Part shown: one piece after another, positions 2,405 to 59,110 of the stretch | How the letters are laid out: every line of letters starts with the position of its first letter | Position numbering within the stretch: the stretch's first letter is position 1 | Assembly: GCA_934277435.1 (NCBI GenBank) | Contig: CAKQUE010000001.1 | Location: 781 to 64,780, forward strand | Direction: 5' to 3' | Source: an uncultured Alphaproteobacteria bacterium | GTDB taxonomy: Bacteria; Pseudomonadota; Alphaproteobacteria; RF32; CAG-239 | Length of the DNA: 64,000 nt | Position numbers and translations under genes: made by a program | Notes under the pieces: model-generated | Database searches by the model: none | The model's input: only the letters and a program-made list of their open reading frames with translations | What the model was told of the DNA's origin: nothing

Positions 2405-3097
2405 TTAATTTTACTTTTGCAAAGCCACATAAATTTCGTGCGCTGATTTTGCTTCTCTGATTTTGCGGCAAGTTTCTTCATCTTTCAAAACTCTTGACAT
2501 CACAGCCAAAGCTTTCAAATGGTCTTCTCCACTTTTTTCTGGTGACAATAAAAACGCTACCAAATCCACCGGATGCGAATCCAAAGATTCATAATCTACG
2601 CCTTTATCCAAACGAGCAAAAACAGCAATAACTTTATCTAAGCCTTCAATTCGGGCGTGAGGGAAAGCAACACCATCGCCATAGCCGGTTGAACCCAAGT
2701 TTTCACGTTCTAATATTGCTTCAAAAACAGAATTTTCATCAATGTTTTCTTTTTCAGCAACAAATTTTGATAACTGTTCAAGCATATTGCGCTTGCTCTC
2801 GGCTTCAACATGAGCCAACACCATGTCTTCTGACAAGATATCTGATATTCCCATTTTTTATCCCTTTTAGTAAAAAATTATTCTGCAGGTTCAACCCAAC
2901 CGATGTTACCATCTTTGCGACGATATACCATACTGATGCGGTTGTTGGCGCTGTTACGGAACATCAAAGCGTTTTCATCGGCCAAATCCATATACATAAC
3001 TGCTTCACCAACAGTGCAAAGTTTGATGTTAGCATCGGTTTCGGCAATGGTTAAAGGAGCAGACTCATCAATGCTCATTTCATCTTCGGTTTCTTTA
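2405..3097. repeat. Direct repeat copy B (ptsN + hpf 3' part)
   Basis: See copy A. Confidence 0.8.
2411..2854 (-). CDS. ptsN: PTS EIIA-Ntr, copy 2
   Basis: 147 aa, 4 substitutions vs copy 1. Confidence 0.85.
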   Translation of the reverse strand: MGISDILSEDMVLAHVEAESKRNMLEQLSKFVAEKENIDENSVFEAILERENLGSTGYGDGVAFPHARIEGLDKVIAVFARLDKGVDYESLDSHPVDLVAFLLSPEKSGEDHLKALAVMSRVLKDEETCRKIREAKSAHEIYVALQK

Positions 3098-12830: not shown

Positions 12831-12856
12831 ATAAATTAATTGTCTGATATTTTTTA

Positions 12857-12894
12857 GCAAGCTGAACATAAACCGTTCAGCTTGTTTCTTTTTT
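12857..12894 (+). terminator. Rho-independent terminator
   Basis: agcaagctgaac…gttcagcttg stem followed by tttcttttttac. Confidence 0.6.
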
Positions 12895-39232: not shown

Positions 39233-41662
39233 CTAGGCAATATTTAAATATTTTGTAACAAATCCATCTTCCCCATATTCTTGAATGAGTTGTTGAACCA
39301 ACAAAACATTTTTTCTTCCTGAATTGTAAATACGCAAATATTTGCCTAATCCACCTAAATTTACATCCAAAATAACCGATTCACCAGTTACTGGGCGTGA
39401 TAATAATATGGCGTACGGAAAATCGCGGTAACTTTTACCAAAAATAAAATCAAGTTCGCTTTGAGTCAAATTCCAGTTGGCGTAGTCTTCTATCTGTGCT
39501 TGCGGGTTGCGGAAAAAGATAACCGTTTGACATTGACCGCGAATAACCTCGCCGACACCTAACTTATCAACAATATTCGGTTGTTGGAAGGCGCAGAGAT
39601 AGGCTTGACGTTTTTTACGTCCCTCTTGCAAACCAATTATAAAGTAATCACGGAACATTGGGTGTTTTAACATTGGCGCCGTTTCATCAATCATAATCAA
39701 TGACGGCACACCGGTTTCACCAGTTTCAGATTGAATACGATGCATAATATAGCTGATTACCGCCGGCGCAAGGTTTTCATCTTCAAAAATATGTGTAAAG
39801 TCAAACGCCATAAAACGACGGCTCTTCAAATCCAAACTATCGTCTTGCCCATTGAAAATAGCACCATACTGATCCGGATTTACCCAACGGTATAATTCAC
39901 GACGCATATTTCCGGTTGGTGAAAAACAACTCTTATACAAGTTTTTCAACAAACGTTCTTCCGGCCGCAAATAGTCAAATGCCGTGGTAATAGCGCGTGC
40001 AACTTCTCTTTCGGCCAACGCATCGTCAACCATGGTGATAGCTTTCAACCAACGACGCAAAAATGCTCGGTTTTCAGGAGTATTTGCGCAGTCAAACGGA
40101 TTAAGCGATACATTTTTTTCATCACCGTCGAAACCTACATAAGCACCTTTAACAGCGCGGGTAAAAATTTGAGCACCCAAGTGTCTATCAAAGAAGAAAA
40201 CTCGCAAATCACCATGCCGCATAGCTTGTCCGGCTAAAAATGTGAGCAATGTGGTTTTACCTTGACCAGTAGGACCGATAATGCAACAGTGCGCCACGGC
40301 AGACTCTTCGCTGGACACATGGAATTGAAAACGATACGCTGAACCCGACATAGTTCTAAACACAGTAATAGCGCCATTTCCCCAGTCACTTTTGCTAAAT
40401 CCTTCCGCCGGTTTATCCATAGTTGTCGCCATAGCGATAACTCTTGACAAGTAGCGATACGTTCTTGGATAGGTGTCGTATGTTGGAAATTGCGTAAAGA
40501 ACACAGCTTGATTAACCCAGCCTTCTCGAACAGGTGTCACACCAAACGCGCGACAGATACGTTGTACTTCAGATTCCCCAAAATTTATCTCTTCTTTTGA
40601 TTCGCCTTTGATAATCACTGTAAACGCATATTCACACAGCGATTGATAGTTATTATCACTATCATCAATAGCAGCTAAAGCTTCGCTGTATTGGTCCGAA
40701 ACATTTTCTGAAAAGCTGGTAACACGCGACATTCTTTGTTGCTGCATCAAAAGCATACGCCCTTCCGAACGGAAAAGCGGACGGATATTTTGCAATATTA
40801 CTAGCTCGCAATCAATAGCATTCAGCGAATAAATCATACTTTCATCCATAGCTTCGCCGCTGGAACGAATACCCATAGCAATTTCATAGAGATTTTTTTC
40901 GCCGGAAAAGAAATGAATTATACCTTCCTCTTTGGTAAAATGAATATGGTCGGCAGTCAGCATCTCGCACAATCTAGCGCCTTCAACATCTCTAACCTTT
41001 GGCTCTGGTTTAGAAATAGGGCTGCATAGCCGCGAAAACAAATAAAACGGGCTATCCTCTGCCTTACTTTCAGGAGTTTCATACATTGGTCTGACACCGT
41101 ATTCACTTAAAGTAGAAAGCAAACTTTGAGAAGCGTAGTTCAAATCTTTTAAAGCGTCCTTACGGTCAATAACCGACAGAATTATATAGTGCTTGTTGCT
41201 ATACACCCTATCCATATTTTGGAACCAAATTTGCGAAATTGTGTCAAGCAGCTGGTTATTGAAATCTCTTTTTTCTTTTTCCAATGAAATTCTTTCACGC
41301 GTTGTGATAACTCGGCAGACAATTTGCATATTAGCCATATCATCAATCCACGATTTGCGAGCCTCCATCATGGAATATACTTTTTCTCCAGTGGCGGCAG
41401 ACAAATCCATACCCTCAAGTTTGAAAACACGGGCAAAAGAATTATTACTGCACTGGATAGTAACGCCATCAGACATCAGTTTGGTAAACGGTAAAAAATC
41501 TGAAACGCGAGATTCCCTTGGCTGCGGCAAAACCATTCGACCGAATCTGGTTGAAAGCAAAACCGCAAACGACGCCGCCGAAGCAATACCAATCAAAGCC
41601 ACAATTACTTGTAAGCTGTTTAATCCTTCGACAAATATACTCATAAAATCATAGTTATTCAT
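39233..41662 (-). CDS. virB4: T4SS ATPase VirB4/TrbE/CagE
   Basis: 809 aa; Walker A GPTGQGKTTLLTFL; VirB4 length and position after virB3. Confidence 0.85.
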   Translation of the reverse strand: MNNYDFMSIFVEGLNSLQVIVALIGIASAASFAVLLSTRFGRMVLPQPRESRVSDFLPFTKLMSDGVTIQCSNNSFARVFKLEGMDLSAATGEKVYSMMEARKSWIDDMANMQIVCRVITTRERISLEKEKRDFNNQLLDTISQIWFQNMDRVYSNKHYIILSVIDRKDALKDLNYASQSLLSTLSEYGVRPMYETPESKAEDSPFYLFSRLCSPISKPEPKVRDVEGARLCEMLTADHIHFTKEEGIIHFFSGEKNLYEIAMGIRSSGEAMDESMIYSLNAIDCELVILQNIRPLFRSEGRMLLMQQQRMSRVTSFSENVSDQYSEALAAIDDSDNNYQSLCEYAFTVIIKGESKEEINFGESEVQRICRAFGVTPVREGWVNQAVFFTQFPTYDTYPRTYRYLSRVIAMATTMDKPAEGFSKSDWGNGAITVFRTMSGSAYRFQFHVSSEESAVAHCCIIGPTGQGKTTLLTFLAGQAMRHGDLRVFFFDRHLGAQIFTRAVKGAYVGFDGDEKNVSLNPFDCANTPENRAFLRRWLKAITMVDDALAEREVARAITTAFDYLRPEERLLKNLYKSCFSPTGNMRRELYRWVNPDQYGAIFNGQDDSLDLKSRRFMAFDFTHIFEDENLAPAVISYIMHRIQSETGETGVPSLIMIDETAPMLKHPMFRDYFIIGLQEGRKKRQAYLCAFQQPNIVDKLGVGEVIRGQCQTVIFFRNPQAQIEDYANWNLTQSELDFIFGKSYRDFPYAILLSRPVTGESVILDVNLGGLGKYLRIYNSGRKNVLLVQQLIQEYGEDGFVTKYLNIA

Positions 41663-41949
41663 GGCTCAAACTTGTTTCCTTGCACTGCGTATAAATTATG
41701 GCTTATTTTATTACTTTGTCCATAGGCTTGAAGCATGGTTGACAAATGTGGCTCTTTAAAACCAGCCACAACCAGAGCTGCATGTGCGACAATTATACTG
41801 AAAATAAAATACAAAGGGTTTAATCCAGATATTCCAACTCCCATAAACAACATCGGAAACTGAATACCCAAATTAATCATTGACGGCACCATAGGGGCAA
41901 ACAAAAATTTGGGCGGCTGAGCCACAGCTTTTAAAATTTCTTCCCGCAT
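41659..41949 (-). CDS. virB3: VirB3/TrbD-like small inner-membrane protein
   Basis: 96 aa, two hydrophobic segments, 4-nt overlap with virB4. Confidence 0.6.
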   Translation of the reverse strand: MREEILKAVAQPPKFLFAPMVPSMINLGIQFPMLFMGVGISGLNPLYFIFSIIVAHAALVVAGFKEPHLSTMLQAYGQSNKISHNLYAVQGNKFEP

Positions 41950-41950
41950 A

Positions 41951-42379
41951 TTATCTCCTCCGCAATTTTTGTTTAAGTTCCAAAACAGACTTAGTATCTT
42001 TCACGGCTGAAAAAGCAACTTGGTTAATTTGCTGATAGCTTTTGGAATTAACAACCACCAAATTTTTTTTCTGAGCAGTACGTTTCACCGTATCTTGATA
42101 CTGCCGAGTCAACTGATTTTGTTCATCCAAAGCCATTTGGGCTTTATCCTCGAGTAAATCGGCTATATCATTTTCACTATTTATTACCGCGTCAGGATTT
42201 TTGGCCAAGACTTTATCTATCTCTCGTAATTTTTTTATTTTAATTGCTGTAGCGGCGTTAAGTTTATACAAATTAGAAGTTTGCTCTCCCGGAGTTGCCT
42301 GAGCTTCCTCAACATTCATATACGCCAATGCCGTATGACTTAGCAGCATAAATGAGAATATTGATAATAATAACTTCAT
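41951..42379 (-). CDS. Secreted coiled-coil protein (142 aa) between virB2 paralogs and virB3
   Basis: Signal peptide MKLLLSIFSFMLLSHTALA; helical, charged. Confidence 0.35.
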   Translation of the reverse strand: MKLLLSIFSFMLLSHTALAYMNVEEAQATPGEQTSNLYKLNAATAIKIKKLREIDKVLAKNPDAVINSENDIADLLEDKAQMALDEQNQLTRQYQDTVKRTAQKKNLVVVNSKSYQQINQVAFSAVKDTKSVLELKQKLRRR

Positions 42380-42391
42380 TTATCTACCTCA

Positions 42392-42778
42392 TTAAGGTTT
42401 ATTTCCACTTTTCGGTACACTATTTGATTGAGCGTCTCCTGGTGGAGTTGCATTTCCTCCCACGCCGTTTGTCACCACTCCCGCGTCACCACTAACGCGC
42501 AAATAATCATGAATAGCCCCTTTCAACAGTAACGTGATAATAAAAGTACTCATCATGATATAAGCCAAAGTTTTCCAGCTAACTTTATTAAAAATGGCAG
42601 CAACAGAAAACGCCAATAGTCCCAAACCGGCTACCATATAGCCAAATTTGGCCAGACCGGTTCCCATTGCATCACCAAGATCTTTTAGTCTATCAAAAAC
42701 ATCGGCATGCGCCTCTGGTATGGACGCAAAAAGCAAAACAAGAACCATAAAAAAGAGAATATTGTATTTTTTAATCAT
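42392..42778 (-). CDS. virB2: VirB2/TrbC pilin paralog 3
   Basis: Long signal peptide, two hydrophobic helices, conserved …F(N/G)K(V/F)xWKxxA… shared by the three paralogs. Confidence 0.6.
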   Translation of the reverse strand: MIKKYNILFFMVLVLLFASIPEAHADVFDRLKDLGDAMGTGLAKFGYMVAGLGLLAFSVAAIFNKVSWKTLAYIMMSTFIITLLLKGAIHDYLRVSGDAGVVTNGVGGNATPPGDAQSNSVPKSGNKP

Positions 42779-42788
42779 TACTTATCTC

Positions 42789-43151
42789 CTATTTGACACC
42801 AATTAAATCGGCACTTAGCTCATTAGCGCCAATCAAACTTGTGGCGGCCCAAGACATTACAAAAACGCCGATAGAAATAGCGGCAAACCATTTCCAATTG
42901 AAGCTACCGAACATACCAGCAATACAACAGCAGGCGATACCAATTGTTGCCGCAGGAGCTATAATCTTATACAATCCGGCAAAAATACTTTTACCGGCAT
43001 TATTTAAGGCATCAAAAGTTTCAGCTGACGCAGCAAATGCGCATAAGAATACTGAAAGGAACAAACCGATAGTATACTTATTGCTATCTAAAAATTTCAA
43101 CATTCTTATAAACATTTCATCCCTCCAAAATTTTATATTTATTTTTCCCAA
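42789..43151 (-). CDS. virB2: VirB2/TrbC pilin paralog 2
   Basis: As above (…FGSFNWKWFAAISIGVFVMSWA…). Confidence 0.6.
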   Translation of the reverse strand: MGKINIKFWRDEMFIRMLKFLDSNKYTIGLFLSVFLCAFAASAETFDALNNAGKSIFAGLYKIIAPAATIGIACCCIAGMFGSFNWKWFAAISIGVFVMSWAATSLIGANELSADLIGVK

Positions 43152-43175
43152 AGAGGCACTGGGTGCCTCTTTGGA
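43148..43175 (-). terminator. Stem-loop immediately downstream of first virB2 paralog (possible attenuator/partial terminator)
   Basis: ccaaagaggcac-tggg-gtgcctctttgg 12-bp perfect stem, AT-rich flank. Confidence 0.4.
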
Positions 43176-43184
43176 AGGATAAAA

Positions 43185-43538
43185 TTAGATACCAGTATTA
43201 TTACCAAGGGTATCCTCAAATTGGTTACCAACTGCATTATTGGTATTTGCAGCATAGTTAACAATAGCACCAGCGGCGGCCACAACAGCCAAACCAAAAG
43301 CCAAAGCAGCAAACCACGGCCATTTTACTTTACCAAAAATAGCTTGGAACGCCAAGGCCACCAAACCAAAACCACCAATCATAAAAATAACAAGTTTTGC
43401 GTTTGTAAACAAGTTGGCCATTTTTTTGATGGCCGTACCAAACACAGAATCAGCGGCAGAGGCATCTCCGAGCATAACAACTGTAAACAATAATGACATT
43501 GTTACAATGCTCAAAATATTTGATTTTAAAAATTTCAT
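43185..43538 (-). CDS. virB2: VirB2/TrbC pilin paralog 1 (first gene of the vir operon)
   Basis: 117 aa; …FGKVKWPWFAALAFGLAVVAAAGAIV…. Confidence 0.65.
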   Translation of the reverse strand: MKFLKSNILSIVTMSLLFTVVMLGDASAADSVFGTAIKKMANLFTNAKLVIFMIGGFGLVALAFQAIFGKVKWPWFAALAFGLAVVAAAGAIVNYAANTNNAVGNQFEDTLGNNTGI

Positions 43539-43601
43539 TTTAGTTCTCCTTAAGTAGAATTATATACATTTATATCTTAACGCAAATCTGTAAACTTTTC
43601 C

Positions 43602-43650
43602 AGCTTTTTTGTAGTTATGCAACTTATTGTTTTTGCTACAAAAAAAAGCT
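43602..43650. promoter_or_regulatory. Imperfect inverted repeat (AGC-T6-GTAG … CTAC-A8-GCT) in divergent virB2 / pilus-operon promoter region; third half-site TATTTGTAGCATG at 43694-43706
   Basis: Read directly from the 310-bp AT-rich intergenic region between divergent operons. Confidence 0.4.
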
Positions 43651-43848
43651 TGTCACAAAAATTTCACATTTATATACACAGCATATACGCGCTATTTGTA
43701 GCATGAAAAGGTAAATAATTTGATAATAAATAATACGGTGTAACGCTTGTTTTTGTATGGCTTACACTTTGTTTTTTGCTATTAACTCTATTTTAACACA
43801 ATTAGATGTATTCTGCCGATAAGACGGGTGTCCTATATGCCGTAGTGC

Positions 43849-45513
43849 GTGCGGATTCCTGCATTTAAGGGTAATGAAATGCCAAATTTTGGTTGGAAAT
43901 GTTTTATTGGTAGCTTTCTTTTTTCTTTAGCGGCGGTGTTTGCCTCCACTAAAGTTTATCTTTTATTGCCTATTGAGCACCAAAATCCTGTAGAGAAAAC
44001 AGCTTTCGAGGACATTGAAACCAAAAATATAGACTTATTTGCAGACAATGAAGAATCCAATCCGATTGTTGAAAAGTTCAATGAAATAAATAATAAACAG
44101 GCTAAAATAGCTGCTATTCAAGATATTGCTCCGACTACTGACACCCCAAAAAGCGTGCAATCTGATGTTTCTGTGGCAGATAAAGAGGATAAGCCCATTG
44201 AAATATCTTCACTTTCTTCAGATGTACTTTATGCTCCAGATGAAGATATGTCGGAAATTTCTGTCACTGATGCTGATAATTCAGCAAATAAAGATATTGA
44301 CGAAGCGCCAGAAATTTCTGAAAATCAAGAAACAAATCCTGTAAATAGTAACTCTTTTGAGCAAGCAATCTTGGTGGACGATACTGAAGATGAAAGCTTG
44401 CAAATTGCCGACGCCTCCGAAGCCAGACCATTTACTATACCTTTATTGCATAATTTTCAGGTTGCTGCGCAAAAAGTAGAAGTTTCTAATGAAGCTGCAA
44501 ACAGTCAAGTCGCTTTAGCCTCAAACAATGTTTTAATTCAAAATATCGGCACCGAAAACAAAATAGCTGCCGCCAGCGGAGAACCAAATAACTTAGTTCC
44601 AGACACAGCTGAGAACGATTCCGACCCTTGGGAAGTGGCAGCAGTGGGAAACTCTCATATAACAAAAAATAAAATCGATAGTTTCACAGGCGATGGAAAT
44701 AAAACTATGGAGGCTTTAGACCAAGATAAGCTTGCTGAGGCTAAATCGCCTAACGAAAAACAAGTTGCGTATAAAATGGTTAAAAACATTTTAATCCCAA
44801 TTCCAGAGGACATCGCTAATGATGAAAATTTGACGCCGCAGCTTTCTTATTCGGAAGAAAATAAAAAACTAAGCGAAAAATTACAAAAAGAAGGCATCTT
44901 AAATCCACCAACACCAATAAAGGAAGAAATAAAAAACAAAGAAGAAACGACCACAACTCCTGTGCCTTTGACTAACAATCAAAGTGAAAATAAACTATCT
45001 GAACCGAGCCTCACTGATAGTATTGCAGCTTGGTTTTCTTCCAATCCTTCGTCAGATAATAATTCTACAAACAATAAGGCGGATAAAGATAAAGATAAAG
45101 ATAAAAATAAAAAAGAAGAAAGCAGCAGTTCTACTTTTAGCAAACTTTTGGGACTAGGAGCCAAAAAAGACAATAATATTGCTCCCTCAGAACTGAAACT
45201 AGCTTTTCAGCCCGACCGCGCAGAGATTTCTGGACAGACGCTTGATTGGTTAAAAGCTTTTTCTCTGAACGCTGTTAACAATGAAAACGTGTTTGTAGAA
45301 ATACGCATTGACGGTTCAAGCTCTTTTGAGCTACAACAAAAACGTTTGAACCTTCTATATTCAATCTTAGTAAATAATGGTGTTGATTATAATAAAATTA
45401 ACATAATTTTTACGGATAGAGAGCCAAACTCTTTTATTATTAGAAATGTTAGATATGCCAGCGAAGATGATGCTATCAATGTTCATAAAAAGGCTTACAA
45501 TCCATGGTATTAA
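43849..45513 (+). CDS. Acidic bitopic/secreted protein (554 aa), first gene of pilus operon
   Basis: N-terminal hydrophobic segment FIGSFLFSLAAVFA; long acidic region with KDKDKDKDKNK stretch; C-terminal β-rich domain. Confidence 0.4.
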   Translation: MRIPAFKGNEMPNFGWKCFIGSFLFSLAAVFASTKVYLLLPIEHQNPVEKTAFEDIETKNIDLFADNEESNPIVEKFNEINNKQAKIAAIQDIAPTTDTPKSVQSDVSVADKEDKPIEISSLSSDVLYAPDEDMSEISVTDADNSANKDIDEAPEISENQETNPVNSNSFEQAILVDDTEDESLQIADASEARPFTIPLLHNFQVAAQKVEVSNEAANSQVALASNNVLIQNIGTENKIAAASGEPNNLVPDTAENDSDPWEVAAVGNSHITKNKIDSFTGDGNKTMEALDQDKLAEAKSPNEKQVAYKMVKNILIPIPEDIANDENLTPQLSYSEENKKLSEKLQKEGILNPPTPIKEEIKNKEETTTTPVPLTNNQSENKLSEPSLTDSIAAWFSSNPSSDNNSTNNKADKDKDKDKNKKEESSSSTFSKLLGLGAKKDNNIAPSELKLAFQPDRAEISGQTLDWLKAFSLNAVNNENVFVEIRIDGSSSFELQQKRLNLLYSILVNNGVDYNKINIIFTDREPNSFIIRNVRYASEDDAINVHKKAYNPWY

Positions 45514-45559
45514 CTTCTGCTTGCTATTTTAATTTCAACCTGTATTATAGGAAAATACG

Positions 45560-46339
45560 ATGAGATACAACTTTGAAAGAAATATTATGACTAATAAACT
45601 TGCTTTGATGAGTTTATGCTTGAGCTTAGTAATGATAAGCGGCTGCGTAAGCGACAAAAGTTATATGGAAGAAGAATGCGAAAACGGTATTTGCACCAGT
45701 GAAAAAGAGTATCGTGAAGTTTGCACAGAAACTCCTGATGGCTTCAGTGTATGTGAAGACAGTGTTGAACCAGCAGAAAACGTTAACTATACCAGAACTC
45801 AAGCCGATTTCCGCAAATATGGCGAGCGTACTCCTAGAGATCATCGTATTACGCAAGCCGGCGCCGGAAACAATATTTCGGCTGCCGTTCCGCCAAGCAT
45901 AGATGATGAAGTTGTTGATTATGAAGCTGAAGTTATGGAACGCGATACTCCGACAACACCTTGCGCGGATGGTGTGACACCTGCTGGCGCACCTTGCCCT
46001 GCTGCGGCTGTGAATACATCTGCTGCGGAAACAGAAGAGAATACCGAAACAAATTCGGAAGAAGAAGATCAAAATAAAGATTGGTTGGCTGAAGAAGGTC
46101 AAAGCCTGAAAGAATTATTAACAGCATGGAGTGAAGAGTCCGGCTGGAGATTAATTTGGAAAACCAACCGCAACTATACTTTAAACGCAGGCGCTATGTT
46201 CAGAGGTAATTTTGCCGATGTATCGTCTGCCCTTGTACGCGCTTTTGCCCGAGCAAGACCTGCTCCAATAGCCACATTTTATAAAGGTAACCGCGTCTTG
46301 GTAATTGAAACTATGGAGGACGAAAATGCGTATGACTAA
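45560..46339 (+). CDS. Lipoprotein with TcpQ/PilL-like C-terminal domain (secretin partner)
   Basis: Lipobox VMISGC; Cys-rich N-part; C-terminal …RGNFADVSSALVRAFARARP…FYKGNRVLVIE…; overlaps the downstream secretin gene, whose start is taken at 46326. Confidence 0.45.
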   Translation: MRYNFERNIMTNKLALMSLCLSLVMISGCVSDKSYMEEECENGICTSEKEYREVCTETPDGFSVCEDSVEPAENVNYTRTQADFRKYGERTPRDHRITQAGAGNNISAAVPPSIDDEVVDYEAEVMERDTPTTPCADGVTPAGAPCPAAAVNTSAAETEENTETNSEEEDQNKDWLAEEGQSLKELLTAWSEESGWRLIWKTNRNYTLNAGAMFRGNFADVSSALVRAFARARPAPIATFYKGNRVLVIETMEDENAYD

Positions 46340-47972
46340 TTTACTGAAACTTGCCGTTGTTGGAATTTTAGGCGTTACTGTTGCTTGTTCCGTTTCACCG
46401 GAAATTGACGAATCTATCTCGCGTCAAACCGAAAACGCGTTAGATTTGAAGCAAAAAGCCGCCGTTCCGGGCGACCCTATTCCAGATGACGTTGTAAGAG
46501 TTAAAAACGATATTTGGCTTGGCGACACCAGCAGTGTTGAATTTGAAGGTCAGCCTGTTCCGGCTTATTTGGAAACTAAAGATGGTATTACTTTAATTAG
46601 TAACCGCCCGATTACCCTTTATGAAATCGGCTCAATGATTAATAAAATCACCTCTCTTTCGGTACGCTATGCTCCAGAATTAGAAGAAAATGCCGTTGCT
46701 AATGCTGATAAAAACCAACCGGCAATGAAAGACATCGGTGCTCAATGGACAGATTCAACCAAGATGATTGTAAACTACAAAGGTCCTATCAGTGGTTTGC
46801 TTGACGAAGTTTCTAACCGTTTTGGAATTTGGTGGAAGTATGAAAAGAATGAAATCTATTTCTACAAATACATCACTAAAACATTTGTTCTTTATTCTTT
46901 ACCGACAAATCCGTCTCTGAGCGTTTCTGTTGGCGGTTCCGGCGGCTCTTCCAGCATTTCGCAGAGCAGCTCAGTTGACGGTATGGATATGTGGGCAAAT
47001 ATTCAAAGCACAATCAGTTCTATGATTACCTCTGATTCAAACTTGGTAATGGATAAAGGCGCGGGCACAATTACTTTGACTGCCACACCGACTGATATCA
47101 AACGTGTTGCAAAATACATTAATGAACAGAACCAACGCGTTTCAAAACAAGTTGCAATCAGTGTAAAAGTTATTCAAGTTAACATCTCTAATGCTGATAA
47201 ATATAGTCTTGACTTGTCTGCAACATTTAAAGGACGCGGCTCAATAAAAGATGTTACTGGGCACAACACATCAAGTATTGATAATCCTTTGACTGATTTA
47301 ACAATGGGCATTAGTTCAAGCCGTTGGAGTGTTGACGCCGCTATGCAGGCCTTGTCACAAGAAGGAAATACAAACCTTGTGACCAGCGGTACGGTAACAA
47401 CAATGAATAATAAACCGGCTCCAATTCAGGTGGTGAAAACACAAAACTATATTTCACAAATCACCAAAACAAACAGCGGCGATTCAGATACTTATGATAT
47501 TTCTGTAGAAACAGAAGAAATTGAGACAGGTTTCACCATGAGCGTTTTGCCAAGAATCTTGGATCATGGTCGTATCTTGATGTTCTTTAACTTAACTCTA
47601 TCTGATTTGTTATCTCTTGACGCGATAAATGTTTCCGGCGGTTCATCTTCTGACAGTTCATCATCGGATAAGACTGATGACAGTGACAGTGATAGTGACA
47701 GCAATTCCGGCGGTGACAGCGAATTTATTCAAAACCCTGTTATCGAAACCCGCGGCTTTACTCAAGAAGTTGCACTTAAATCTGGTGATACTTTGATTTT
47801 GGCAGGTTATGAACGTGTTGAAGATTCAACAGATAAGAAGGGCGTTGGCTCACCGAAAAACACTCTGTTGGGTGGTTCTCAAGCAGCAACAAGAAACAGA
47901 ACAATTTTAGTTATCATGTTAACTCCGGTTGTTTTGGAATCTCCTCTGTCGCCAGAGTCCAGAATGAACTAA
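46326..47972 (+). CDS. Type IVb-pilus-type secretin (BfpB/TcpC/PilN-like), probable lipoprotein
   Basis: C-terminal secretin domain (…FTMSVLPRILDHGRILM…VIETRGFTQEVALKSGDTLILAGYE…RTILVIMLTPVV); N-terminal signal ending …GVTVAC. Confidence 0.75.
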   Translation: MRMTNLLKLAVVGILGVTVACSVSPEIDESISRQTENALDLKQKAAVPGDPIPDDVVRVKNDIWLGDTSSVEFEGQPVPAYLETKDGITLISNRPITLYEIGSMINKITSLSVRYAPELEENAVANADKNQPAMKDIGAQWTDSTKMIVNYKGPISGLLDEVSNRFGIWWKYEKNEIYFYKYITKTFVLYSLPTNPSLSVSVGGSGGSSSISQSSSVDGMDMWANIQSTISSMITSDSNLVMDKGAGTITLTATPTDIKRVAKYINEQNQRVSKQVAISVKVIQVNISNADKYSLDLSATFKGRGSIKDVTGHNTSSIDNPLTDLTMGISSSRWSVDAAMQALSQEGNTNLVTSGTVTTMNNKPAPIQVVKTQNYISQITKTNSGDSDTYDISVETEEIETGFTMSVLPRILDHGRILMFFNLTLSDLLSLDAINVSGGSSSDSSSSDKTDDSDSDSDSNSGGDSEFIQNPVIETRGFTQEVALKSGDTLILAGYERVEDSTDKKGVGSPKNTLLGGSQAATRNRTILVIMLTPVVLESPLSPESRMN

Positions 47973-47991
47973 CAATTAAAGGAGAAAATCC

Positions 47992-49236
47992 GTGGCTGAT
48001 GATTTAGAAGAAGAAAAAGCATGGAAGTCATCTTTCTCTGAAAGCGGTGTGACCTATGCCGCCAGCTTGTTTTGGCAACCTTTAATCAATGATGACAATC
48101 CGCTTCCGGAAGTCAAAGAAGCTGCCGAAAACATTCTTGAAGGCGCCGACTTATATGCAGTGCGCAAAGGCAAATCATCTCAATTTGGTTTGGCGGCCTC
48201 TTCGCAAGGCTTTACCCACGGTATGCCTTCTGCAGCTATTGCTTTAGTTTCTGCGCTCGGTAACGTGACTTCATTTTTAGGCGTATTCAAAGTTGATAAC
48301 GGCTGGTGGTATATATGTTTTAGAAATGATGTTATCCTTTCTGATGGCGATACTTTGTTTGTAAACGAAAAAGACGCTAAGGATCAGTTTATTTCAATGC
48401 TGGCCGTTCCGGATTGGGATATGCTTTTCGCTCCGCAGGAATGGGGAATTGAAGACACAAAACCAGATGCTTTGGCGACTTTGATAAATCGCGGCCTTCT
48501 AGTAAAATTGGAAAAAATTAACGGTAGCAATGATGCTATTATGCTTGGCGTTGTTGTCGTTGGCTTCGCGATTATACTATGGTATGGTTACTCAACGATT
48601 CAGAGTATGTTTTTCTCGGCTCCTGAGGCTCCGGTGATTGCACCGGTGGAACAAGTACAAGCTCCTGCTCCAGAACCTCCAGAACCAAAACCATGGGAAA
48701 CTATAAAAAACCCTATAGACCAAATGCGTGAATGTTATGAAGCAACAAAAAAAGTTGTGCAAATTGTTACGCCTGGTTGGTCTATTGAAGGTATAACTTG
48801 CAATTCCGGCGGACTTGTGACCTCTTGGAAACGGGATTTAGGCCGTATTACTTGGATGGAACAAGCTTTGAATGTTTCTGGAGTTAATTTTACTTCTCGC
48901 GCGATATCTGACGATGGTAACACCTTTATGGTAACCGTGCCAATCGGTGAAATTTCGACGTTAAACTCTCCTCCGGAATATTCCGAACAAGACTTAAGAA
49001 ATATTATCAACGACTTAAATCAGACGTTGACAACAAATATTCAAATTGAGAAAAAAAGTTGGACTTCTCCAAGGGGAAAATTGTATAATATTATGAATTT
49101 TAGCATTTCATCAAACAATGATCCGTTAACTTGGATTGAATTGTTAATGAAATTTTCAGGTTTATCTGTTACAGAAATAACTTATGATATAAACAGCAGC
49201 ACTTGGACTTATAAGGGGGAAATTTATGAGTTATAA
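47992..49236 (+). CDS. Bitopic pilus assembly protein (BfpC/TcpR/PilO-like topology)
   Basis: 414 aa, single central TM LGVVVVGFAIILWYGY, cytoplasmic N-domain and periplasmic C-domain. Confidence 0.4.
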   Translation: MADDLEEEKAWKSSFSESGVTYAASLFWQPLINDDNPLPEVKEAAENILEGADLYAVRKGKSSQFGLAASSQGFTHGMPSAAIALVSALGNVTSFLGVFKVDNGWWYICFRNDVILSDGDTLFVNEKDAKDQFISMLAVPDWDMLFAPQEWGIEDTKPDALATLINRGLLVKLEKINGSNDAIMLGVVVVGFAIILWYGYSTIQSMFFSAPEAPVIAPVEQVQAPAPEPPEPKPWETIKNPIDQMRECYEATKKVVQIVTPGWSIEGITCNSGGLVTSWKRDLGRITWMEQALNVSGVNFTSRAISDDGNTFMVTVPIGEISTLNSPPEYSEQDLRNIINDLNQTLTTNIQIEKKSWTSPRGKLYNIMNFSISSNNDPLTWIELLMKFSGLSVTEITYDINSSTWTYKGEIYEL

Positions 49237-50833
49237 TCTTAAAAATAATAACATTGTCATGATTGCTGTGGCGATTGCCGCAATTATGACTATCAGCCCT
49301 GCAGCATATGCACAAACTGCAGACAATCAGATTAATGCTGAAGCACCTGCTCCCCAGGTCCATGAAAATGACGATTTGTTCGGATTAGATGAACCTGCAG
49401 ATGGCACTCCGGCAGAAACAAGTTCTGACGCCGCATCCGAAAATGCAGTTGCAGATGAAACAGCTGTTCCAGCACCTATTGCTGATGAAAATAGTCAAAC
49501 ACAGGCAGAGTCTGCACCTCAAGGCCTAGCTGACGTTGACAAAGCTGCTGGTGAAGCTCAACCTACAGAGGAAAACAACAAAGAAGTTCAACCAAGTAAT
49601 GTTGATTTGAACTCTATTCCTGATACTTCCACGGATGAAGGTAAAAAATCTTTAGAGGCTGCAACATCTGACAGCGATGAACAAGTTGCTATTGAAGCGC
49701 CTAAATCTCCTTTTGAAAACTTTGGAAATGCTATTCTTTCTAAAGTTGACAATAGTTTATTCAATCAAATGTCTAACATTGAAAAACAAACAACTATTCT
49801 CAATTTGGAATATAAGCGCGAAGAAGTGCGTAATCGTATTGAAGCTTTACGTATCCAGCGTCTGAAAGCTCAACAAGAAGAGGCTAGTCGTCTTAAGGAA
49901 GAAGAAAACCGTGCAAAAGATGAAGAAAATAAACGTAAAATTAAAGAAATTGAAGCGCAAGAAAAATTGAAACGCGCCGAAATGGAGTTGGAAAAAATTC
50001 GTCAAGCCAAAGTCTTAAATGAATATATGAACGAAATGTTGATTGTTAATCAGCAATGGGTTGAAAAAAATGCAGCTTTACAAAGTAAAGTAAAAGAACT
50101 TCGCGATGAACGCAAAGCCTTAATCAAAGATTTTGAGGATAAAATTTCTACAATTAAAAAAGAATCTGATGCTACCATTTTGAAAGCGCAAAATGCAAAA
50201 GAAGCACATAATAAAGTTGTATCCTCATTGCAAACTCAAATTTCCAGCTTGAAAAAAGCTATTATACAAAGTGAAGATACAATAAATCAGTTGAAATCAG
50301 GTAACGGTAACTCGGCTAATCCGTTTGCGGAGGGTATAGACGAAAATGCTATTGATATGTCTGATGAATATGCTATCATGGATATAACTGGTAAAGGCAA
50401 AGATATTATTGCTAAAATCATTAATAAAGATGGTACTACATTTATTGTTCACCAAGGTTCTATGCTGAAAGGCGGCGAAGTTGTGATGGCAATTACTGAT
50501 AACTATATTGCTTTTGATAATAAAGGAGTTAAAAGCTACTTATATACCGGCGGAACAGTTCGCGAATATGAACCTGAAAATTCTTTTAACGGAGCAGACA
50601 AAACTCCTGTTGCCGCACAAGGTGTTGTTAACAACAATAATGTAGTGCGTAATGTGCGCGGTGCCCCTATTACCCAGCAAGCTGGTTCAAATTTGAAAGA
50701 AGCAACCGGAGCAGCAGTGGCAAAACCACAAAATAAAGGCGCTGCAGATAAAAAGGAGACAATAAATACAGCCAAACGTAGTAGTACTAATGCTAGTATT
50801 GGTTCGATTGGACAGGATATGTTTGTTAAATAA
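49226..50833 (+). CDS. Secreted coiled-coil protein with PilP-like C-terminal β-domain
   Basis: Signal peptide; acidic N-part; coiled-coil; C-terminal …IMDITGKGKDIIAKIINKDGTTFIVHQGSMLKGGEVVMAITDNYIAFD…. Confidence 0.45.
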   Translation: MSYNLKNNNIVMIAVAIAAIMTISPAAYAQTADNQINAEAPAPQVHENDDLFGLDEPADGTPAETSSDAASENAVADETAVPAPIADENSQTQAESAPQGLADVDKAAGEAQPTEENNKEVQPSNVDLNSIPDTSTDEGKKSLEAATSDSDEQVAIEAPKSPFENFGNAILSKVDNSLFNQMSNIEKQTTILNLEYKREEVRNRIEALRIQRLKAQQEEASRLKEEENRAKDEENKRKIKEIEAQEKLKRAEMELEKIRQAKVLNEYMNEMLIVNQQWVEKNAALQSKVKELRDERKALIKDFEDKISTIKKESDATILKAQNAKEAHNKVVSSLQTQISSLKKAIIQSEDTINQLKSGNGNSANPFAEGIDENAIDMSDEYAIMDITGKGKDIIAKIINKDGTTFIVHQGSMLKGGEVVMAITDNYIAFDNKGVKSYLYTGGTVREYEPENSFNGADKTPVAAQGVVNNNNVVRNVRGAPITQQAGSNLKEATGAAVAKPQNKGAADKKETINTAKRSSTNASIGSIGQDMFVK

Positions 50834-50835
50834 AA

Positions 50836-52605
50836 ATGGCTAACCAAGATGTAAAACAAGTTCAGACTTTAAGCAGCGCCGAGCGTATAAGCTCTGGCGT
50901 GCTTAAGCCTGCTACGGCGGATAAAACATCTAATATTAAGCCTGCGGCACCAGAAATAAAGCAAGAATCATCATTAACCCCGCCACCAATTAAAAAAACA
51001 TCTGATATTGTGGAAGATGCGGCTGAAACAAAGAAAAGCGGCAATATTCTACAAACATTATTTGCTAACGGTAACAAAGTATTAACTTCTGAAGATGGTG
51101 ATTTAAACATCAATAGTGAAACCCGCAGAATGTTGGTATTATTTTCTGACGGTACATATCTTATTGATGAAGCACATCGTTTTGACGGACAAGTTCTGAA
51201 CTTTACAGCCATTGCTAAACGACGCAAGCTGATTATGCATACTCCTAAGTATGTATCAAGCCAAGAAATTTCAGCTATTTACGCCTATGCAATGCGTGGC
51301 GCTGGCGAAATCAAGATGTCGGCCAAAGAATCTGCCGACTATCAAATGCAAATAGACTTTTTGAGCGTGATTAACCGTGCTGCAGCCAAAAATGTTTCCG
51401 ACGTGCATGTTGTTGTGGCTGATTCAACCTTAATTCTGTTTAGGGTTAATGGTATGATGGAGCGAGAGCTGGAATACTCTGCCGAATGGGGTGAAGCTTT
51501 TGTACGTGCTGCTTTTGCATCGGCAGATATTTCTGATGCAAACTATGCTCAAAACGAGTTTCAAGGTGCGCAAAAACTTGGTTCAACTCCATTGCGCGGT
51601 ACAGATGGTAAATTAACCTTGCCGCATAACGTTTTGGCTATTCGTTTACAATTTAATCCGGTTGCTTTCGGTTCACAATATCTGGTTATGCGTCTTTTGT
51701 ACGCTGATGATAATCCTAATGGTAACGGAGATTTGAAATCTCTAGGCTTAGGAGAAAGAGAACTAAATTTATTTTATCGTCTGCGAGCAACTGCAGTAGG
51801 TCTGAATATTGTTGCCGGTCCGACTGGTTCTGGTAAATCAACTACCTTGCAACGCAACATGATTAAGATGATTCAAGAGCATAACGGCGAAATTAATGTT
51901 ATTACCGTGGAAGACCCGCCTGAATATCCTATTCCGGGGGCACGTCAGATGCCTGTTACTAATGCAAACAGCGAAGAAGAAAAAAATGAAGAGTTTACAA
52001 AAGCGTTGTCGGCTGCTTTGCGTTCTGACCCAGATGTAATGATGGTTGGTGAAATTCGATCTTTAGCAACCGCGGATTTGGTGTTCAAGGGCGCGCTTTC
52101 TGGTCATAGTGTATGGTCAACATTGCACGCCAACTCCGCACCGGCAATTATAACTCGTTTCCGCGATATGGGGGTACAGCCGTATATGCTTTGCGACCCA
52201 GAAATTATGAAAGGATTGATTTCTCAACGTTTATTCCGAAAAATTTGTCCTTATTGCCGAATTTCAATTAAAGAAAGAATGAGCGACCCCTCTTATGGCC
52301 GTCTGAAAACCGCGCTTGGCGACTATGGTATTGAAAATACTTATGTCCGTGGCCCTGGATGCAAATATTGTAATCATAAAGGTGTAATCGGACGTATGTC
52401 TGTGCCTGAAATTATTGTTCCTGATGCACACTTTTTACAATTGATGGTCAATGGCGACACCAAAAACGCTATTGACTATTGGGTTAGTGAACTAGATGGC
52501 AGACCTTTGCGAGAAGCGGCAATTGAAAGAATGCTGAAAGGCTATATTGATTTAGATGAAGTGGAACGTTGGTGCGGATTATTGGATCAGCGCCCGATTT
52601 ACTAG
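50836..52605 (+). CDS. GspE/PilB-family assembly ATPase (BfpD/TcpT/PilQ-like) with N-terminal extension
   Basis: Walker A GPTGSGKSTT, Asp/His boxes, tetracysteine motif CPYC…CKYC. Confidence 0.85.
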   Translation: MANQDVKQVQTLSSAERISSGVLKPATADKTSNIKPAAPEIKQESSLTPPPIKKTSDIVEDAAETKKSGNILQTLFANGNKVLTSEDGDLNINSETRRMLVLFSDGTYLIDEAHRFDGQVLNFTAIAKRRKLIMHTPKYVSSQEISAIYAYAMRGAGEIKMSAKESADYQMQIDFLSVINRAAAKNVSDVHVVVADSTLILFRVNGMMERELEYSAEWGEAFVRAAFASADISDANYAQNEFQGAQKLGSTPLRGTDGKLTLPHNVLAIRLQFNPVAFGSQYLVMRLLYADDNPNGNGDLKSLGLGERELNLFYRLRATAVGLNIVAGPTGSGKSTTLQRNMIKMIQEHNGEINVITVEDPPEYPIPGARQMPVTNANSEEEKNEEFTKALSAALRSDPDVMMVGEIRSLATADLVFKGALSGHSVWSTLHANSAPAIITRFRDMGVQPYMLCDPEIMKGLISQRLFRKICPYCRISIKERMSDPSYGRLKTALGDYGIENTYVRGPGCKYCNHKGVIGRMSVPEIIVPDAHFLQLMVNGDTKNAIDYWVSELDGRPLREAAIERMLKGYIDLDEVERWCGLLDQRPIY

Positions 52606-52614
52606 GAGTGAAAA

Positions 52615-53733
52615 ATGCCTGAAATAAAAAAACAAAGTGCCTTTAATAAAGCTATGCGTAACAACAACCAATGGTTGATGTCTTATGCAAAGATTATATG
52701 TTCCATGTCTAATAAAAACCGCCTGAAAATATACCGAAAACTAGCGGCGCTGCTGCGTAACCGTTTTTCGCTTATGAATGCATTGGATATGATTTACAAC
52801 GGCTTGTCCGAAGATGGTAAACATCCTAGCGACCCAATGGCTATAGCTGTTGGTTGCTGGGGTAAATCATTGCAAGAAGGTCACCCATTTTCTGATTGTT
52901 TGAAAGGCTGGGCGCCGAGCCGTGAACGTTTGATGCTGTCTGTGGGTGACGTATCAGACTTGGAAAGCGCCTTGTTAAACTTGATTAAGGTGACAGAAGG
53001 TTCAACACGTATGATTCGACCAATCATTAGCGCCGTTGCTTACCCGTCATTTTTGTTGATGATGTCTGTATTAATTCTTTATGCTATCGGTGTTTATATG
53101 GTGCCGCCTATGCTTGATGCTGCTCCAAACACACGCTGGACCGGCACGGCTAAAACTTTGATTGATTTGTCTGAATGGATTCAAGTAAATTGGCTCATTG
53201 CTTTTTCTGTGTTTCCAATTTTAGGCTTATTAATCTATACAACCATTGGTATTTGGACAGGTCCTGTTCGAGTTAAAATTGACCATTGCCCACCTTGGTC
53301 ACTGTATAAAATTTTTACCGGTATTACTTGGCTGCTGGCTTTATCCGCGTTGGTTAAGGGCGGTGTACCGGTATCTGTGGCCTTAACATCACTACGGCGC
53401 GATTCTAATAAATACCTGAAAGAAAGAATCGATGGAGCTTTATTTCACATAAAAAACGGTGATAACTTGGGGCAGGCTTTAGATAAAGCAGGGCAAGAAT
53501 TTCCGGATAAAGCAATTATTACAGACTTAAAAATTTATTCTGAGTTGGATAACTTTGAAGAAGCTCTGGATAAATTGGCTAATGAATGGCTGGAAGAATC
53601 TGTATACATGATTGAGCAAAGAGCAGAGATTATGAACATGATTGCCATGCTGGCAGTTTCCGGTATTATTGCTTGGGCTGTATTCGGAACCTTTGATATG
53701 CAAGATCAAATTACGAGCGCTATGGGTAAATAA
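52615..53733 (+). CDS. GspF/PilC-family inner-membrane platform protein (BfpE/TcpE/PilR-like)
   Basis: 372 aa, 3 TM segments, two-repeat GspF-like architecture. Confidence 0.65.
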   Translation: MPEIKKQSAFNKAMRNNNQWLMSYAKIICSMSNKNRLKIYRKLAALLRNRFSLMNALDMIYNGLSEDGKHPSDPMAIAVGCWGKSLQEGHPFSDCLKGWAPSRERLMLSVGDVSDLESALLNLIKVTEGSTRMIRPIISAVAYPSFLLMMSVLILYAIGVYMVPPMLDAAPNTRWTGTAKTLIDLSEWIQVNWLIAFSVFPILGLLIYTTIGIWTGPVRVKIDHCPPWSLYKIFTGITWLLALSALVKGGVPVSVALTSLRRDSNKYLKERIDGALFHIKNGDNLGQALDKAGQEFPDKAIITDLKIYSELDNFEEALDKLANEWLEESVYMIEQRAEIMNMIAMLAVSGIIAWAVFGTFDMQDQITSAMGK

Positions 53734-53746
53734 AAAGGATAGAGTT

Positions 53747-54295
53747 ATGCTAAAAATATCATTCAATTTAGAGAAAGCTCGTCTTAACGGATTATTTGGT
53801 ATAGCCATTTTGGCTTTATTGTTAATCTCATGTATAGCGCTGAGTGTGCTCTTACTGCATAATCCGCACAAGGAGTTACATCAAGCCATATTTTCAACAG
53901 CAGATAGGGTGCACACATATTACCGCGACCGCCCTGGATATTGGAAACTGTCTACGCAAACCGCAAAAGATGACAACTTGTTACGTGATGACTTGCAGCA
54001 GTATAAAGAATATAACATTCAGATTGGGCGAGGCACCAACGGCGACGCAGGTCTGCCAAGTGATTTGAGTTTTGATATTACGGTTAAAAACCTTAATAAG
54101 TCGGCCTGCATTTCTCTTAGTGAAATGCCACTAAAGAAACAAGATAAGCTTATCTTGATGAAAATAACAATTATTAATGACAAAAATAATGTAGAATTTT
54201 CTTGGGGCGGAGAACATTCTCTGCCAATAGGAAAATACTCTGCACGTAGTTTTTGCGCGGCTAAAGATAATATTATCAGCTGGTCATTTCAATAA
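53747..54295 (+). CDS. Small N-terminally anchored protein (182 aa); pilus-associated, not a canonical pilin (no Glu+5)
   Basis: Start moved to ATG 53747 (MLKISFNLEKARLNGLFGIAILALLLISC…). Confidence 0.35.
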   Translation: MLKISFNLEKARLNGLFGIAILALLLISCIALSVLLLHNPHKELHQAIFSTADRVHTYYRDRPGYWKLSTQTAKDDNLLRDDLQQYKEYNIQIGRGTNGDAGLPSDLSFDITVKNLNKSACISLSEMPLKKQDKLILMKITIINDKNNVEFSWGGEHSLPIGKYSARSFCAAKDNIISWSFQ

Positions 54296-54464
54296 AATAT
54301 AATCATTATAAGATAAACTTGACGTCAGCACCTAATTGTGATATAGGATACTGAATAATATAGAAATGGGTTAGGTAACTAGCGCTTTTTATATTATTAT
54401 CCCCTATATTCAAAGAATCCTTTTGTTTATTAAACAAGAGGATTTTTCTTTGTATACAGAAAGC

Positions 54465-54492
54465 ACCCCGCTAAATTTTATGGTTAGCGGGG
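54465..54492. terminator. Bidirectional terminator between convergent pilus operon and PilT-like gene
   Basis: caccccgctaa-attttatgg-ttagcgggg then T-rich. Confidence 0.55.
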
Positions 54493-54500
54493 TTGATATT

Positions 54501-55466
54501 TTATTTTGAAACCACATCAAACAGCGGACGGCCTTGTGCCATACGCGTCATCTGCATTTCTATAGTTGTAGCCAAGTTAATCTTTCCGGTTTTGATAATG
54601 TTGCGGGTTTGGTCGCCTTGAGTAGTATTTGGATTGGCAAACAAATACTGAACCACAGGACGCTTTTGCCCTATACCAACCAATTGCTGGTGAATAACAC
54701 CCAATAGACCGCGTGACAACAAGTCAAATGCCAATTCTTCGCTCATTTCACCGCCGGAAGCGTGTTTTACTAAAGCATCGATAGCATCAGCAACGTTGTT
54801 AGCGTGAATTGTAGAAAGCACCAAGTGGCCCGAGGTTGAGGCACGCAGGCATTCGCTTGCAGCTTCTGGGGTACGAATCTCGCCCACAAAAATGTAACGC
54901 GGGCGTGAACGCAGGGCTGAACGTAATGAAGCCCCCCAATCATCATTTACCGGTTGTGTTTGCTTGCACAAACCTATAGAACCATTAGCGGCGTGATATT
55001 CTCCATCCAAAGGCATTTCAAACGGATCTTCAATTGTATAAGCAAAACCACCGCTGCGAATCAAATATTCTCGCAACAAACTGGAAATAGTGGTGGTTTT
55101 ACCAGAACCGGTGGCGCCGCCTAGCAAAATCAAACCAGATGCATTGCTCAATGTTGACAAGTATTTTATCAAAGCCGGCGGATAGCCTAAACTCACTAAA
55201 TCCGGAACTTTCTTTGGCATTTTACGCATACAAAACATTACGCCATACATTGAAACCGTACGTTCAACGCGGAAAAAGAATCCTTCATAAACAACCGAAT
55301 AACTGGATTTACCATTATAGGTATTTTCCAGCAAACTGTAAAATTCTTCAAAATCATCTGGTTCTAATTGCACCAAACCAAATTCTGATTTGGTGTCAGG
55401 AACAAACATTTGTCTATCAGGCGTGATATAAATATCTGAATGATAAACATCATTAATTCTAACCAT
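54501..55466 (-). CDS. PilT/PilU-family (retraction-type) ATPase
   Basis: 321 aa; Walker A GGATGSGKTTT; …IFVGEIRTPEAASECLRASTSGHLVLSTIHANN…. Confidence 0.7.
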   Translation of the reverse strand: MVRINDVYHSDIYITPDRQMFVPDTKSEFGLVQLEPDDFEEFYSLLENTYNGKSSYSVVYEGFFFRVERTVSMYGVMFCMRKMPKKVPDLVSLGYPPALIKYLSTLSNASGLILLGGATGSGKTTTISSLLREYLIRSGGFAYTIEDPFEMPLDGEYHAANGSIGLCKQTQPVNDDWGASLRSALRSRPRYIFVGEIRTPEAASECLRASTSGHLVLSTIHANNVADAIDALVKHASGGEMSEELAFDLLSRGLLGVIHQQLVGIGQKRPVVQYLFANPNTTQGDQTRNIIKTGKINLATTIEMQMTRMAQGRPLFDVVSK

Positions 55467-59081: not shown

Positions 59082-59110
59082 AAGGCCGGAATTTTGCTCC
59101 GGCCTTTTTA
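59082..59110. terminator. Bidirectional Rho-independent terminator
   Basis: aaggccgga-attttgc-tccggcctt + ttttaa; A-run upstream. Confidence 0.65.

Follow-up and report, generated by a model that had tools for sequence, protein, structure and literature searches.

A conserved intercistronic hairpin behind the first of three VirB2-type pilin genes in a type IV secretion operon of uncultured gut Alphaproteobacteria

Three tandem genes for VirB2/TrbC-type pilins, here called P1, P2 and P3, head a type IV secretion system (T4SS) operon in the 64,000-nucleotide stretch analysed in this report (the window; contig CAKQUE010000001.1 of an uncultured alphaproteobacterium of the RF32 lineage), and a perfect RNA hairpin lies in the spacer between P1 and P2. 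We favour the reading, to which we assign a probability of about 0.6, that this hairpin is an intercistronic RNA element that keeps the P1 message above that of the downstream genes, with P1 as the major pilin and P2 and P3 as minor pilins. The reading draws mainly on the recurrence of a strong hairpin behind the first pilin gene in related loci, on the retention of its structure while its sequence turns over, and on the old and stable division of the pilins into three orthologous groups.

Results

The hairpin behind the first pilin gene and its conservation

According to the list of open reading frames (ORFs), all genes of the locus lie on the minus strand, in the 5'-to-3' order promoter region (about 43559-43668), P1, hairpin, P2, P3, ORF142, virB3 and virB4. 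The spacer between P1 and P2 measures 69 nt and contains the hairpin, which begins 8-10 nt past the P1 stop codon. A perfect 12-bp stem behind the first paralog had been described in the initial annotation, and it is indeed present, with coordinates refined to 43148-43174: positions 43148-43159 pair with 43163-43174 through 12 Watson-Crick pairs, seven of them G-C, around the 3-nt loop CCA, and an extension including one U.G pair brings the structure to 14 pairs (43146-43176, minus strand). At -19.4 kcal/mol it is the most stable perfect hairpin of the 64-kb window, the 101-nt region around it folds with a z-score of -4.0 relative to shuffled sequences, and its stem sequence is unique in the window. 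The 3' flank of the hairpin, GAAAAAUAAAUA, contains no U-tract, and a terminator scan of the window did not report it; canonical terminators consisting of a hairpin and a T-run are found in the same window at 147-175, 12856-12886 and 59082-59106. A search against Rfam gave no real family match for the hairpin, only spurious sub-threshold ones.

Conservation was then assessed among relatives. Of the 228 relatives retrieved by a VirB4 search, we retained the 80 best loci (VirB4 identity 75-98%). All 80 come from uncultured Alphaproteobacteria that live in the gut or rumen of humans, ruminants, chickens ('Ca. Scatocola'), rabbits and horses. A hidden Markov model, built from the three window proteins and iterated once, served to find VirB2-type ORFs ahead of virB3-virB4, and pilin genes were counted at a cut-off of 50 bits in 75 loci, including the window. 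We counted a hairpin as strong if its folding free energy was -17 kcal/mol or lower within 90 nt of the gene end, and random 90-nt segments of the same loci served as background. By this measure, and in counts that are not corrected for shared ancestry, 50 of 75 loci have a strong hairpin behind their first pilin gene, whereas only 4 of 300 background segments contain one. Behind the second gene it occurs in only 4 of 72 loci, in all four of which the second gene is a duplicate of P1, and behind the third gene in 16 of 70. As many as 57 of the 64 loci with three pilin genes have a strong hairpin after P1, after P3 or after both, and a sister subclade without the P1 hairpin has a canonical terminator of A-tract, stem and U-tract after P3.

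The perfect 12-bp inverted repeat would also suit an element that acts at the level of DNA, such as an operator, a recombination site or the remnant of a mobile repeat, and a palindrome of this length might be thought fortuitous. Chance, however, is excluded by the difference between 50 of 75 loci and 4 of 300 segments, and a protein-binding site would be expected to keep its sequence, whereas the stems of the 44 clearest hairpins represent 24 families of unrelated sequence, with the window's stem unique among them as it is within the window itself. The structure has thus been retained while the stem sequence turned over. Moreover, purines predominate in the 5' arm of 39 of 41 hairpins, and G.U pairs favour the sense RNA, which is more stable than the antisense RNA in 40 of 50 loci (-23.6 versus -20.5 kcal/mol); this asymmetry argues for a function in the sense transcript and not in DNA. 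We therefore regard a DNA-level or fortuitous origin as highly improbable. RNAalifold predicted no pairs on a MAFFT alignment of the hairpins, probably because their stems cannot be aligned.

A T-run follows the hairpin in only 2 of 47 relatives. Because the U-tract is missing in the window and in the other 45 relatives, we rejected a canonical intrinsic, Rho-independent terminator, despite the stable, GC-containing stem.

A further possibility concerns the translation of P2. The mechanically assigned P2 start, TTG 43151, lies inside the hairpin, and we replaced it by ATG 43115 (MFIRMLKF...), which stands six bases past a GGAGGG Shine-Dalgarno (SD) sequence at 43121-43126, because the resulting N-terminus, M(L/F)xxKIK, is conserved in orthologs. 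With this start, the hairpin could control P2 if its flanking sequence sequestered the P2 SD until ribosomes finishing P1 opened the structure. In the minimum free energy fold of the window sequence, UUUUAUCCUUCC just 5' of the hairpin does pair with GGAGGGAUGAAA, which spans the P2 SD and the nucleotides immediately before the AUG, at an SD pairing probability of 0.81. Among 39 hairpin-bearing relatives, however, this probability exceeds 0.5 in only 11 (mean 0.41), and hairpin and SD lie anywhere from about 15 to 70 nt apart. Such sequestration or translational coupling, although present in the window, is therefore not conserved; we rejected it as a general explanation and consider it quite improbable. 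Nor is the spacer between hairpin and P2 conserved among relatives.

Three pilin genes and their orthologs

P1 (43185-43538, 117 aa) and P2 (42789-43115, 108 aa) score 32.9 and 34.7 bits with the TrbC/VirB2 profile PF04956, above its gathering score of 27.9 bits. P3 (42392-42778, 128 aa), at 26.1 bits, falls 1.8 bits under it, but its orthologs match PF04956 at E<0.01 in 17 of 17 cases tested (best E 1.7e-8), and one long P3 ortholog reaches 42.8 bits. Profile-profile comparison with hhalign links the P1 group to the P2 group at a probability of 98.7% and to the P3 group at 98.4%. In hydropathy plots, all three proteins begin with a hydrophobic signal segment whose last residues are A-x-A, and two hydrophobic helices come after it; the loops that join these helices are short, basic and contain lysine (GKVKW, GSFNWKW and NKVSWK in P1, P2 and P3, respectively). 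The P1 signal peptide, of about 28 aa, ends in ASA, and a low-confidence AF2 model of P1 (pLDDT 62.5) places helices at residues 2-24, 32-68 and 73-99; P3 carries a hydrophilic C-terminal tail of about 40 aa. P1 has 685 homologs, and among those listed nearly all match PF04956 and are unnamed or called 'hypothetical protein'. Neither P1 by itself nor a 30-sequence profile retrieved a pilin in a sequence search of the PDB, and Foldseek found no PDB match to the low-confidence P1 model at E<=0.001.

These matches, together with the adjoining virB3-virB4 genes, bear out the initial annotation of three tandem VirB2 paralogs: on the sequence evidence, P1, P2 and P3 are VirB2/TrbC-type pilin genes, whose products are predicted to polymerise into a pilus. 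Their description as otherwise divergent also holds, at a pairwise identity of 26-31%, and the length of about 120 aa given for all three becomes 108 aa for P2 with its corrected start. The common core proposed for all three, F-x-K-x-x-W-K/P-W-F-A-A, is shared in part: P1 and P3 have F-x-K-x-x-W, P1 and P2 have W-K/P-W-F-A-A, and only F68, W73 and A77 are invariant within the motif, among 11 invariant columns in the whole alignment.

Exactly three pilin genes were found in 64 of the 75 loci and four in a further 6. When 223 VirB2 domains were clustered all against all, exactly three communities emerged, corresponding to gene positions 1, 2 and 3, and the extra genes of the four-copy loci proved to be P1-type duplicates. 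Because the communities coincide with the gene positions, the triplication is old and each copy has been retained; as judged from these sequences, the pilin triad is a stable, ancient set in fixed order across about 70 species. Mean pairwise identity within the groups declines from 57% for P1 to 49% for P2 and 39% for P3. Rough NG86 estimates of the ratio of nonsynonymous to synonymous substitution rates (dN/dS) are 0.15, 0.14 and 0.26 for P1, P2 and P3, compared with 0.06 for VirB3 and 0.02 for VirB4, values that are only approximate because dS is near saturation for most pairs; the lowest dS among the pilins is that of P1. These comparisons suggest that P1 is probably the conserved, major (shaft) pilin and that P2 and P3 are probably minor or specialised pilins that diverge progressively faster.

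The rapid divergence of the pilins could also be taken to indicate alternative antigenic or host-range variants in the manner of Bartonella trwL or Anaplasma virB2, for which there are precedents (PMC2883598, PMC3556328); the hairpin would then be a full stop after P1, with P2 and P3 driven separately. The pilin dN/dS is 6-10 times that of VirB4, and between the window and its closest relative, L001 (USCF01000107.1), VirB4 is 98% identical but P1 only 75%, P2 80% and P3 58%. Against this, the pilin genes keep their number and order, their orthology resolves cleanly into three groups across about 70 species, and the pilin dN/dS is well below 1. Furthermore, P2, P3, ORF142, virB3 and virB4 succeed each other at intervals of 12 nt or less and no conserved promoter intervenes, and a full stop after P1 is excluded because it would silence essential machinery genes. 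We consider a set of variant pilins unlikely.

Two observations on the history of the module can be added. In the comparison with L001, VirB3 is 92% and ORF142 88% identical, the break in identity starts at the ORF142/P3 boundary, and the dS of P3 is three-fold higher than that of VirB4 (1.5 versus 0.5), which hints at recombinational replacement of the pilin module or at very relaxed constraint. Three further loci with complete flanks (L045, L053 and L074) lack a VirB2 gene ahead of virB3 (at about 9700), ORFs having been inspected in L045 only; there, virB3 directly abuts the divergent ORF554 and type IVb pilus genes. The pilin module of these three loci is lost or has moved elsewhere.

Proposed action of the hairpin

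In our favoured reading, one conserved promoter would drive all three pilin genes, and the hairpin would act at the RNA level on the sense transcript, so that the P1 message would exceed those of P2, P3 and some 15 machinery genes further downstream. It might act as a leaky terminator or pause site without a U-tract, or it might stop 3'-to-5' exonucleases once the transcript has been cleaved or Rho has terminated it, and both modes may operate together. Transcription would have to read through the hairpin into P2 and the machinery genes, because the downstream genes are closely spaced and no conserved promoter was detected between them. We infer from the sequence comparisons an excess of P1 mRNA and the corresponding major and minor roles of the pilins.

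The initial annotation had suggested that the stem-loop makes the first paralog the major product by attenuating read-through. The first half of this proposal gains indirect but strong support from the comparative data, namely the enrichment over background, the 24 stem families and the sense asymmetry, and also from the hairpins behind duplicated P1 copies and from P1 being the most conserved pilin, with the lowest dS. Attenuation as the mechanism fares less well, given the missing U-tract. The locus shows a stable spacer structure 3' of the favoured gene that is conserved in relatives and specific to the sense strand, as in the malE-malF type of element, and a 3' decay barrier of that type (PMC5927463) would appear to fit at least as well as attenuation of read-through.

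Several points weigh against our reading. About one third of the related loci have no hairpin after P1, so the element is not indispensable; the missing U-tract makes classical intrinsic termination unlikely; the proposed step in mRNA level at 43150 derives from comparison and not from transcripts; and the hairpin counts include shared ancestry among the loci. A weak internal promoter may lie between the hairpin and P2. Finally, the Pfam score of P2 is as good as that of P1, so that what singles P1 out as the major pilin is solely its conservation, its place in the gene order, its duplication and its low dS.

Long P3 orthologs

In a more distant subclade, with VirB4 at most 79% identical, the P3 orthologs are 330-1145 aa long (L066:6078-9515, L052:6480-9521, L061:7515-9524, L047:757-2646 and L040:8505-9593). 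Their VirB2 core lies within or before long K/E-rich coiled-coil and G/S/N- and Cys-rich extensions that contain no Pfam domain, and a VirB2 fold with such a large passenger is unusual. The window has the short form of P3, followed by the separate coiled-coil ORF142. Because P3 orthologs in sister species carry coiled-coil or G/S/N/Cys-rich extensions of 200-1000 aa, one may imagine an obligately three-pilin appendage in which P1 would form the shaft, P2 a fixed minor subunit and P3 a passenger-displaying 'carrier' pilin, perhaps in the tip or adhesin role of the undetected VirB5, with subunit ratios hard-wired by the lineage-specific hairpins. We put this forward as a speculative extension that is considerably more likely wrong than right.

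Organization of the operon and its promoter region

The triad lies within 450 nt of virB3-virB4. The spacers are 10 nt between P2 and P3 and 12 nt between P3 and ORF142, no gap from P2 through virB4 exceeds 12 nt, and virB3 (41659-41949, minus strand; PF05101, E=6e-4) and virB4 (39233-41662, minus strand; TIGR00929, E=5e-115) overlap by 4 nt. ORF142 (41951-42379, minus strand), between P3 and virB3, encodes a secreted, coiled-coil-like protein that has no Pfam or NCBIfam match and is limited to the near subclade of relatives. Downstream of virB4 follow five ORFs without assignment, two virB8 genes, virB9, a gene for a 1267-aa protein, virB10 and virB11. Among the unassigned operon ORFs, VirB6, VirB5 and a type IV coupling protein (T4CP) found no Pfam support even at E<=10, and no T4CP or relaxase domain was seen in any ORF scanned within the 64-kb window. 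The flanks of the locus consist of the housekeeping genes yidC, hflK, degP, lptA/C, msbA and uvrA, which place the T4SS locus on the chromosome. We read the locus as the start of a VirB-type T4SS operon that lies on the chromosome of an uncultured gut alphaproteobacterium and is inherited vertically; a literature search on RF32 type IV secretion found no description of the T4SS of this lineage.

A block upstream of P1 (43559-43668, minus strand) is highly conserved among relatives and is probably, from its sequence, the operon promoter together with an activator site. It comprises a conserved 18-mer, TGTGAAATTTTTGTGACA (also TRTGAATTTTTTGTTACA; 43651-43668), an IHF-like box, AAAAACAATAAGTTG (also AAAAACAAnnnGTTA; 43620-43634), a -35-like TGGAAA (43597-43602) and two -10-like elements, TAAGAT (43574-43579) and TATAAT (43559-43564), all on the minus strand. 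In about 55 of 66 loci, a copy of the 18-mer with 0-3 mismatches stands about 110-160 nt ahead of P1. A sigma-54 promoter was rejected, the -24/-12 pattern being present in only 1 of 55 loci. An inverted repeat at 43602-43650 was also dismissed as a conserved structure, because the paired fraction of cells, 59.3%, hardly differs from the 59.1% mean of shuffles. RNAalifold on a MAFFT alignment of the promoter region likewise predicted no pairs and no conserved RNA structure; in this region it is the sequence that is conserved and not an RNA structure.

Elsewhere in the operon, VirB10 has 1406 aa with N-terminal beta-flower repeats (PF21785), and the 1267-aa protein encoded before it combines eight beta-flower repeats with matches to RHS repeats (both genes within 18342-26365, minus strand). 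VirB9 (26375-28105, minus strand) carries a peptidoglycan-binding SPOR domain at its C-terminus, and virB8 is present twice. The outer part of this T4SS, with its beta-flower VirB10, 1267-aa protein, VirB9-SPOR and virB8 pair, is unusually elaborate. Divergent from the T4SS promoter lies a type IVb pilus operon of the R64 thin-pilus or Tcp-like kind (43849-55466), with products ORF554, a TcpQ-like protein, a PilN-type secretin, PilO, an unknown protein, the PilQ ATPase and PilR; a gene for a PilT-like ATPase stands on the opposite strand within the same region. The pairing of T4SS and type IVb pilus is kept in relatives such as L045.

Near one end of the window are two tandem ptsN-like (PTS EIIA-type) genes of 147 aa each (1156-1599 and 2411-2854, minus strand), 1255 nt apart, which adjoin hpf and lptA/C/B. 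The usual position of rpoN is between lptB and hpf, and it is missing there in the window, which suggests that sigma-54 may be absent from the locus or from the genome.

Discussion

Multi-copy VirB2 has so far been known as variable arrays of fast turnover in pathogens such as Bartonella and Anaplasma. Here, we describe a three-gene set that has stayed fixed in about 70 species of a lineage that is common in gut and rumen but uncultured and that includes metagenome-assembled genomes (MAGs) from the human gut; the retention of the set across these species argues for a division of labour among pilins and not for antigenic variation. The hairpin illustrates cleanly, in a natural setting, how an RNA structure can be conserved while its sequence turns over, and it offers a simple, testable handle on how subunit ratios may be set in a T4SS operon. 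The giant beta-flower VirB10, the VirB9-SPOR protein, the type IVb pilus and the extended pilins of relatives point to a possible relevance for attachment to hosts or to other microbes.

Among known systems, the Trw system of Bartonella has tandem trwL (VirB2) genes, five to eight copies depending on the species, that encode co-expressed variant pilus components and whose orthology is blurred by recombination (PMC2883598). Like Trw, the locus described here is a chromosomal alphaproteobacterial T4SS related to conjugation systems with a single pilin gene, several tandem VirB2 genes head its operon, and its pilins diverge much faster than the machinery. Trw has lost its coupling protein; at our locus, the search for one covered the 64 kb of the window and found none. 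In contrast, copy number varies in Trw, whereas three orthologous groups are fixed here across about 70 species, and there is no co-amplified VirB5/TrwJ. Thus, tandem, fast-diverging VirB2 genes are found in both, but the variable copy number and blurred orthology of such arrays are not seen here, where 64 of 75 loci have three genes. To our knowledge, no conserved hairpin after the first trwL copy has been described.

In Anaplasmataceae, 8-15 virB2 paralogs, whose number varies between strains, are differentially expressed between hosts; their clusters are separate from virB3/virB4-1, and VirB2 is the most diverse T4SS component (PMC3556328). Our locus resembles them in having several small VirB2 paralogs, each composed of a signal peptide and two helices and variable mostly outside the helices, and differs in its fixed triad within one operon.

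The nearest annotated VirB4 proteins (30-39% identity) belong to alphaproteobacterial plasmids with one virB2 each and adjoining MobA/MobL relaxases. These plasmids (Microvirga pMVF16-3, Erythrobacter, Sphingosinicella and Ca. Paracaedimonas) share the virB2-virB3-virB4 order with our locus but differ from it in their single pilin gene, their plasmid location and the adjoining relaxase. In Microvirga, the nearest of the plasmid relatives, a terminator-like hairpin, AAAAGGGGGC-UUUC-GCCCCCUUUUU, lies between the single virB2 and virB3; it has a canonical U-tract, which the window's hairpin does not. Together with the terminator after P3 in the sister subclade, the Microvirga hairpin ties the placement of the element to the separation of pilin genes from machinery genes.

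Hairpins of pilin genes are a known design in chaperone-usher pili. Like a Rho-independent terminator, our hairpin is a GC-containing stem-loop that stands where a coding region ends, but it differs in having no U-tract and in being followed by essential genes without a promoter. The closest documented parallels are malE, the first gene of malEFG, which is stabilised by a protective intergenic 3' hairpin, and papA, whose pilin mRNA is likewise stabilised (PMC5927463). As in malE-malF and papA, a stable, conserved hairpin stands here in the spacer 3' of the gene that would be needed in the greatest amount. The malE-malF function has been shown by decay measurements and 3'-end mapping, whereas ours is derived from comparison alone, and the mal element is a REP repeat, whereas the stem in the window is unique and lineage-specific.

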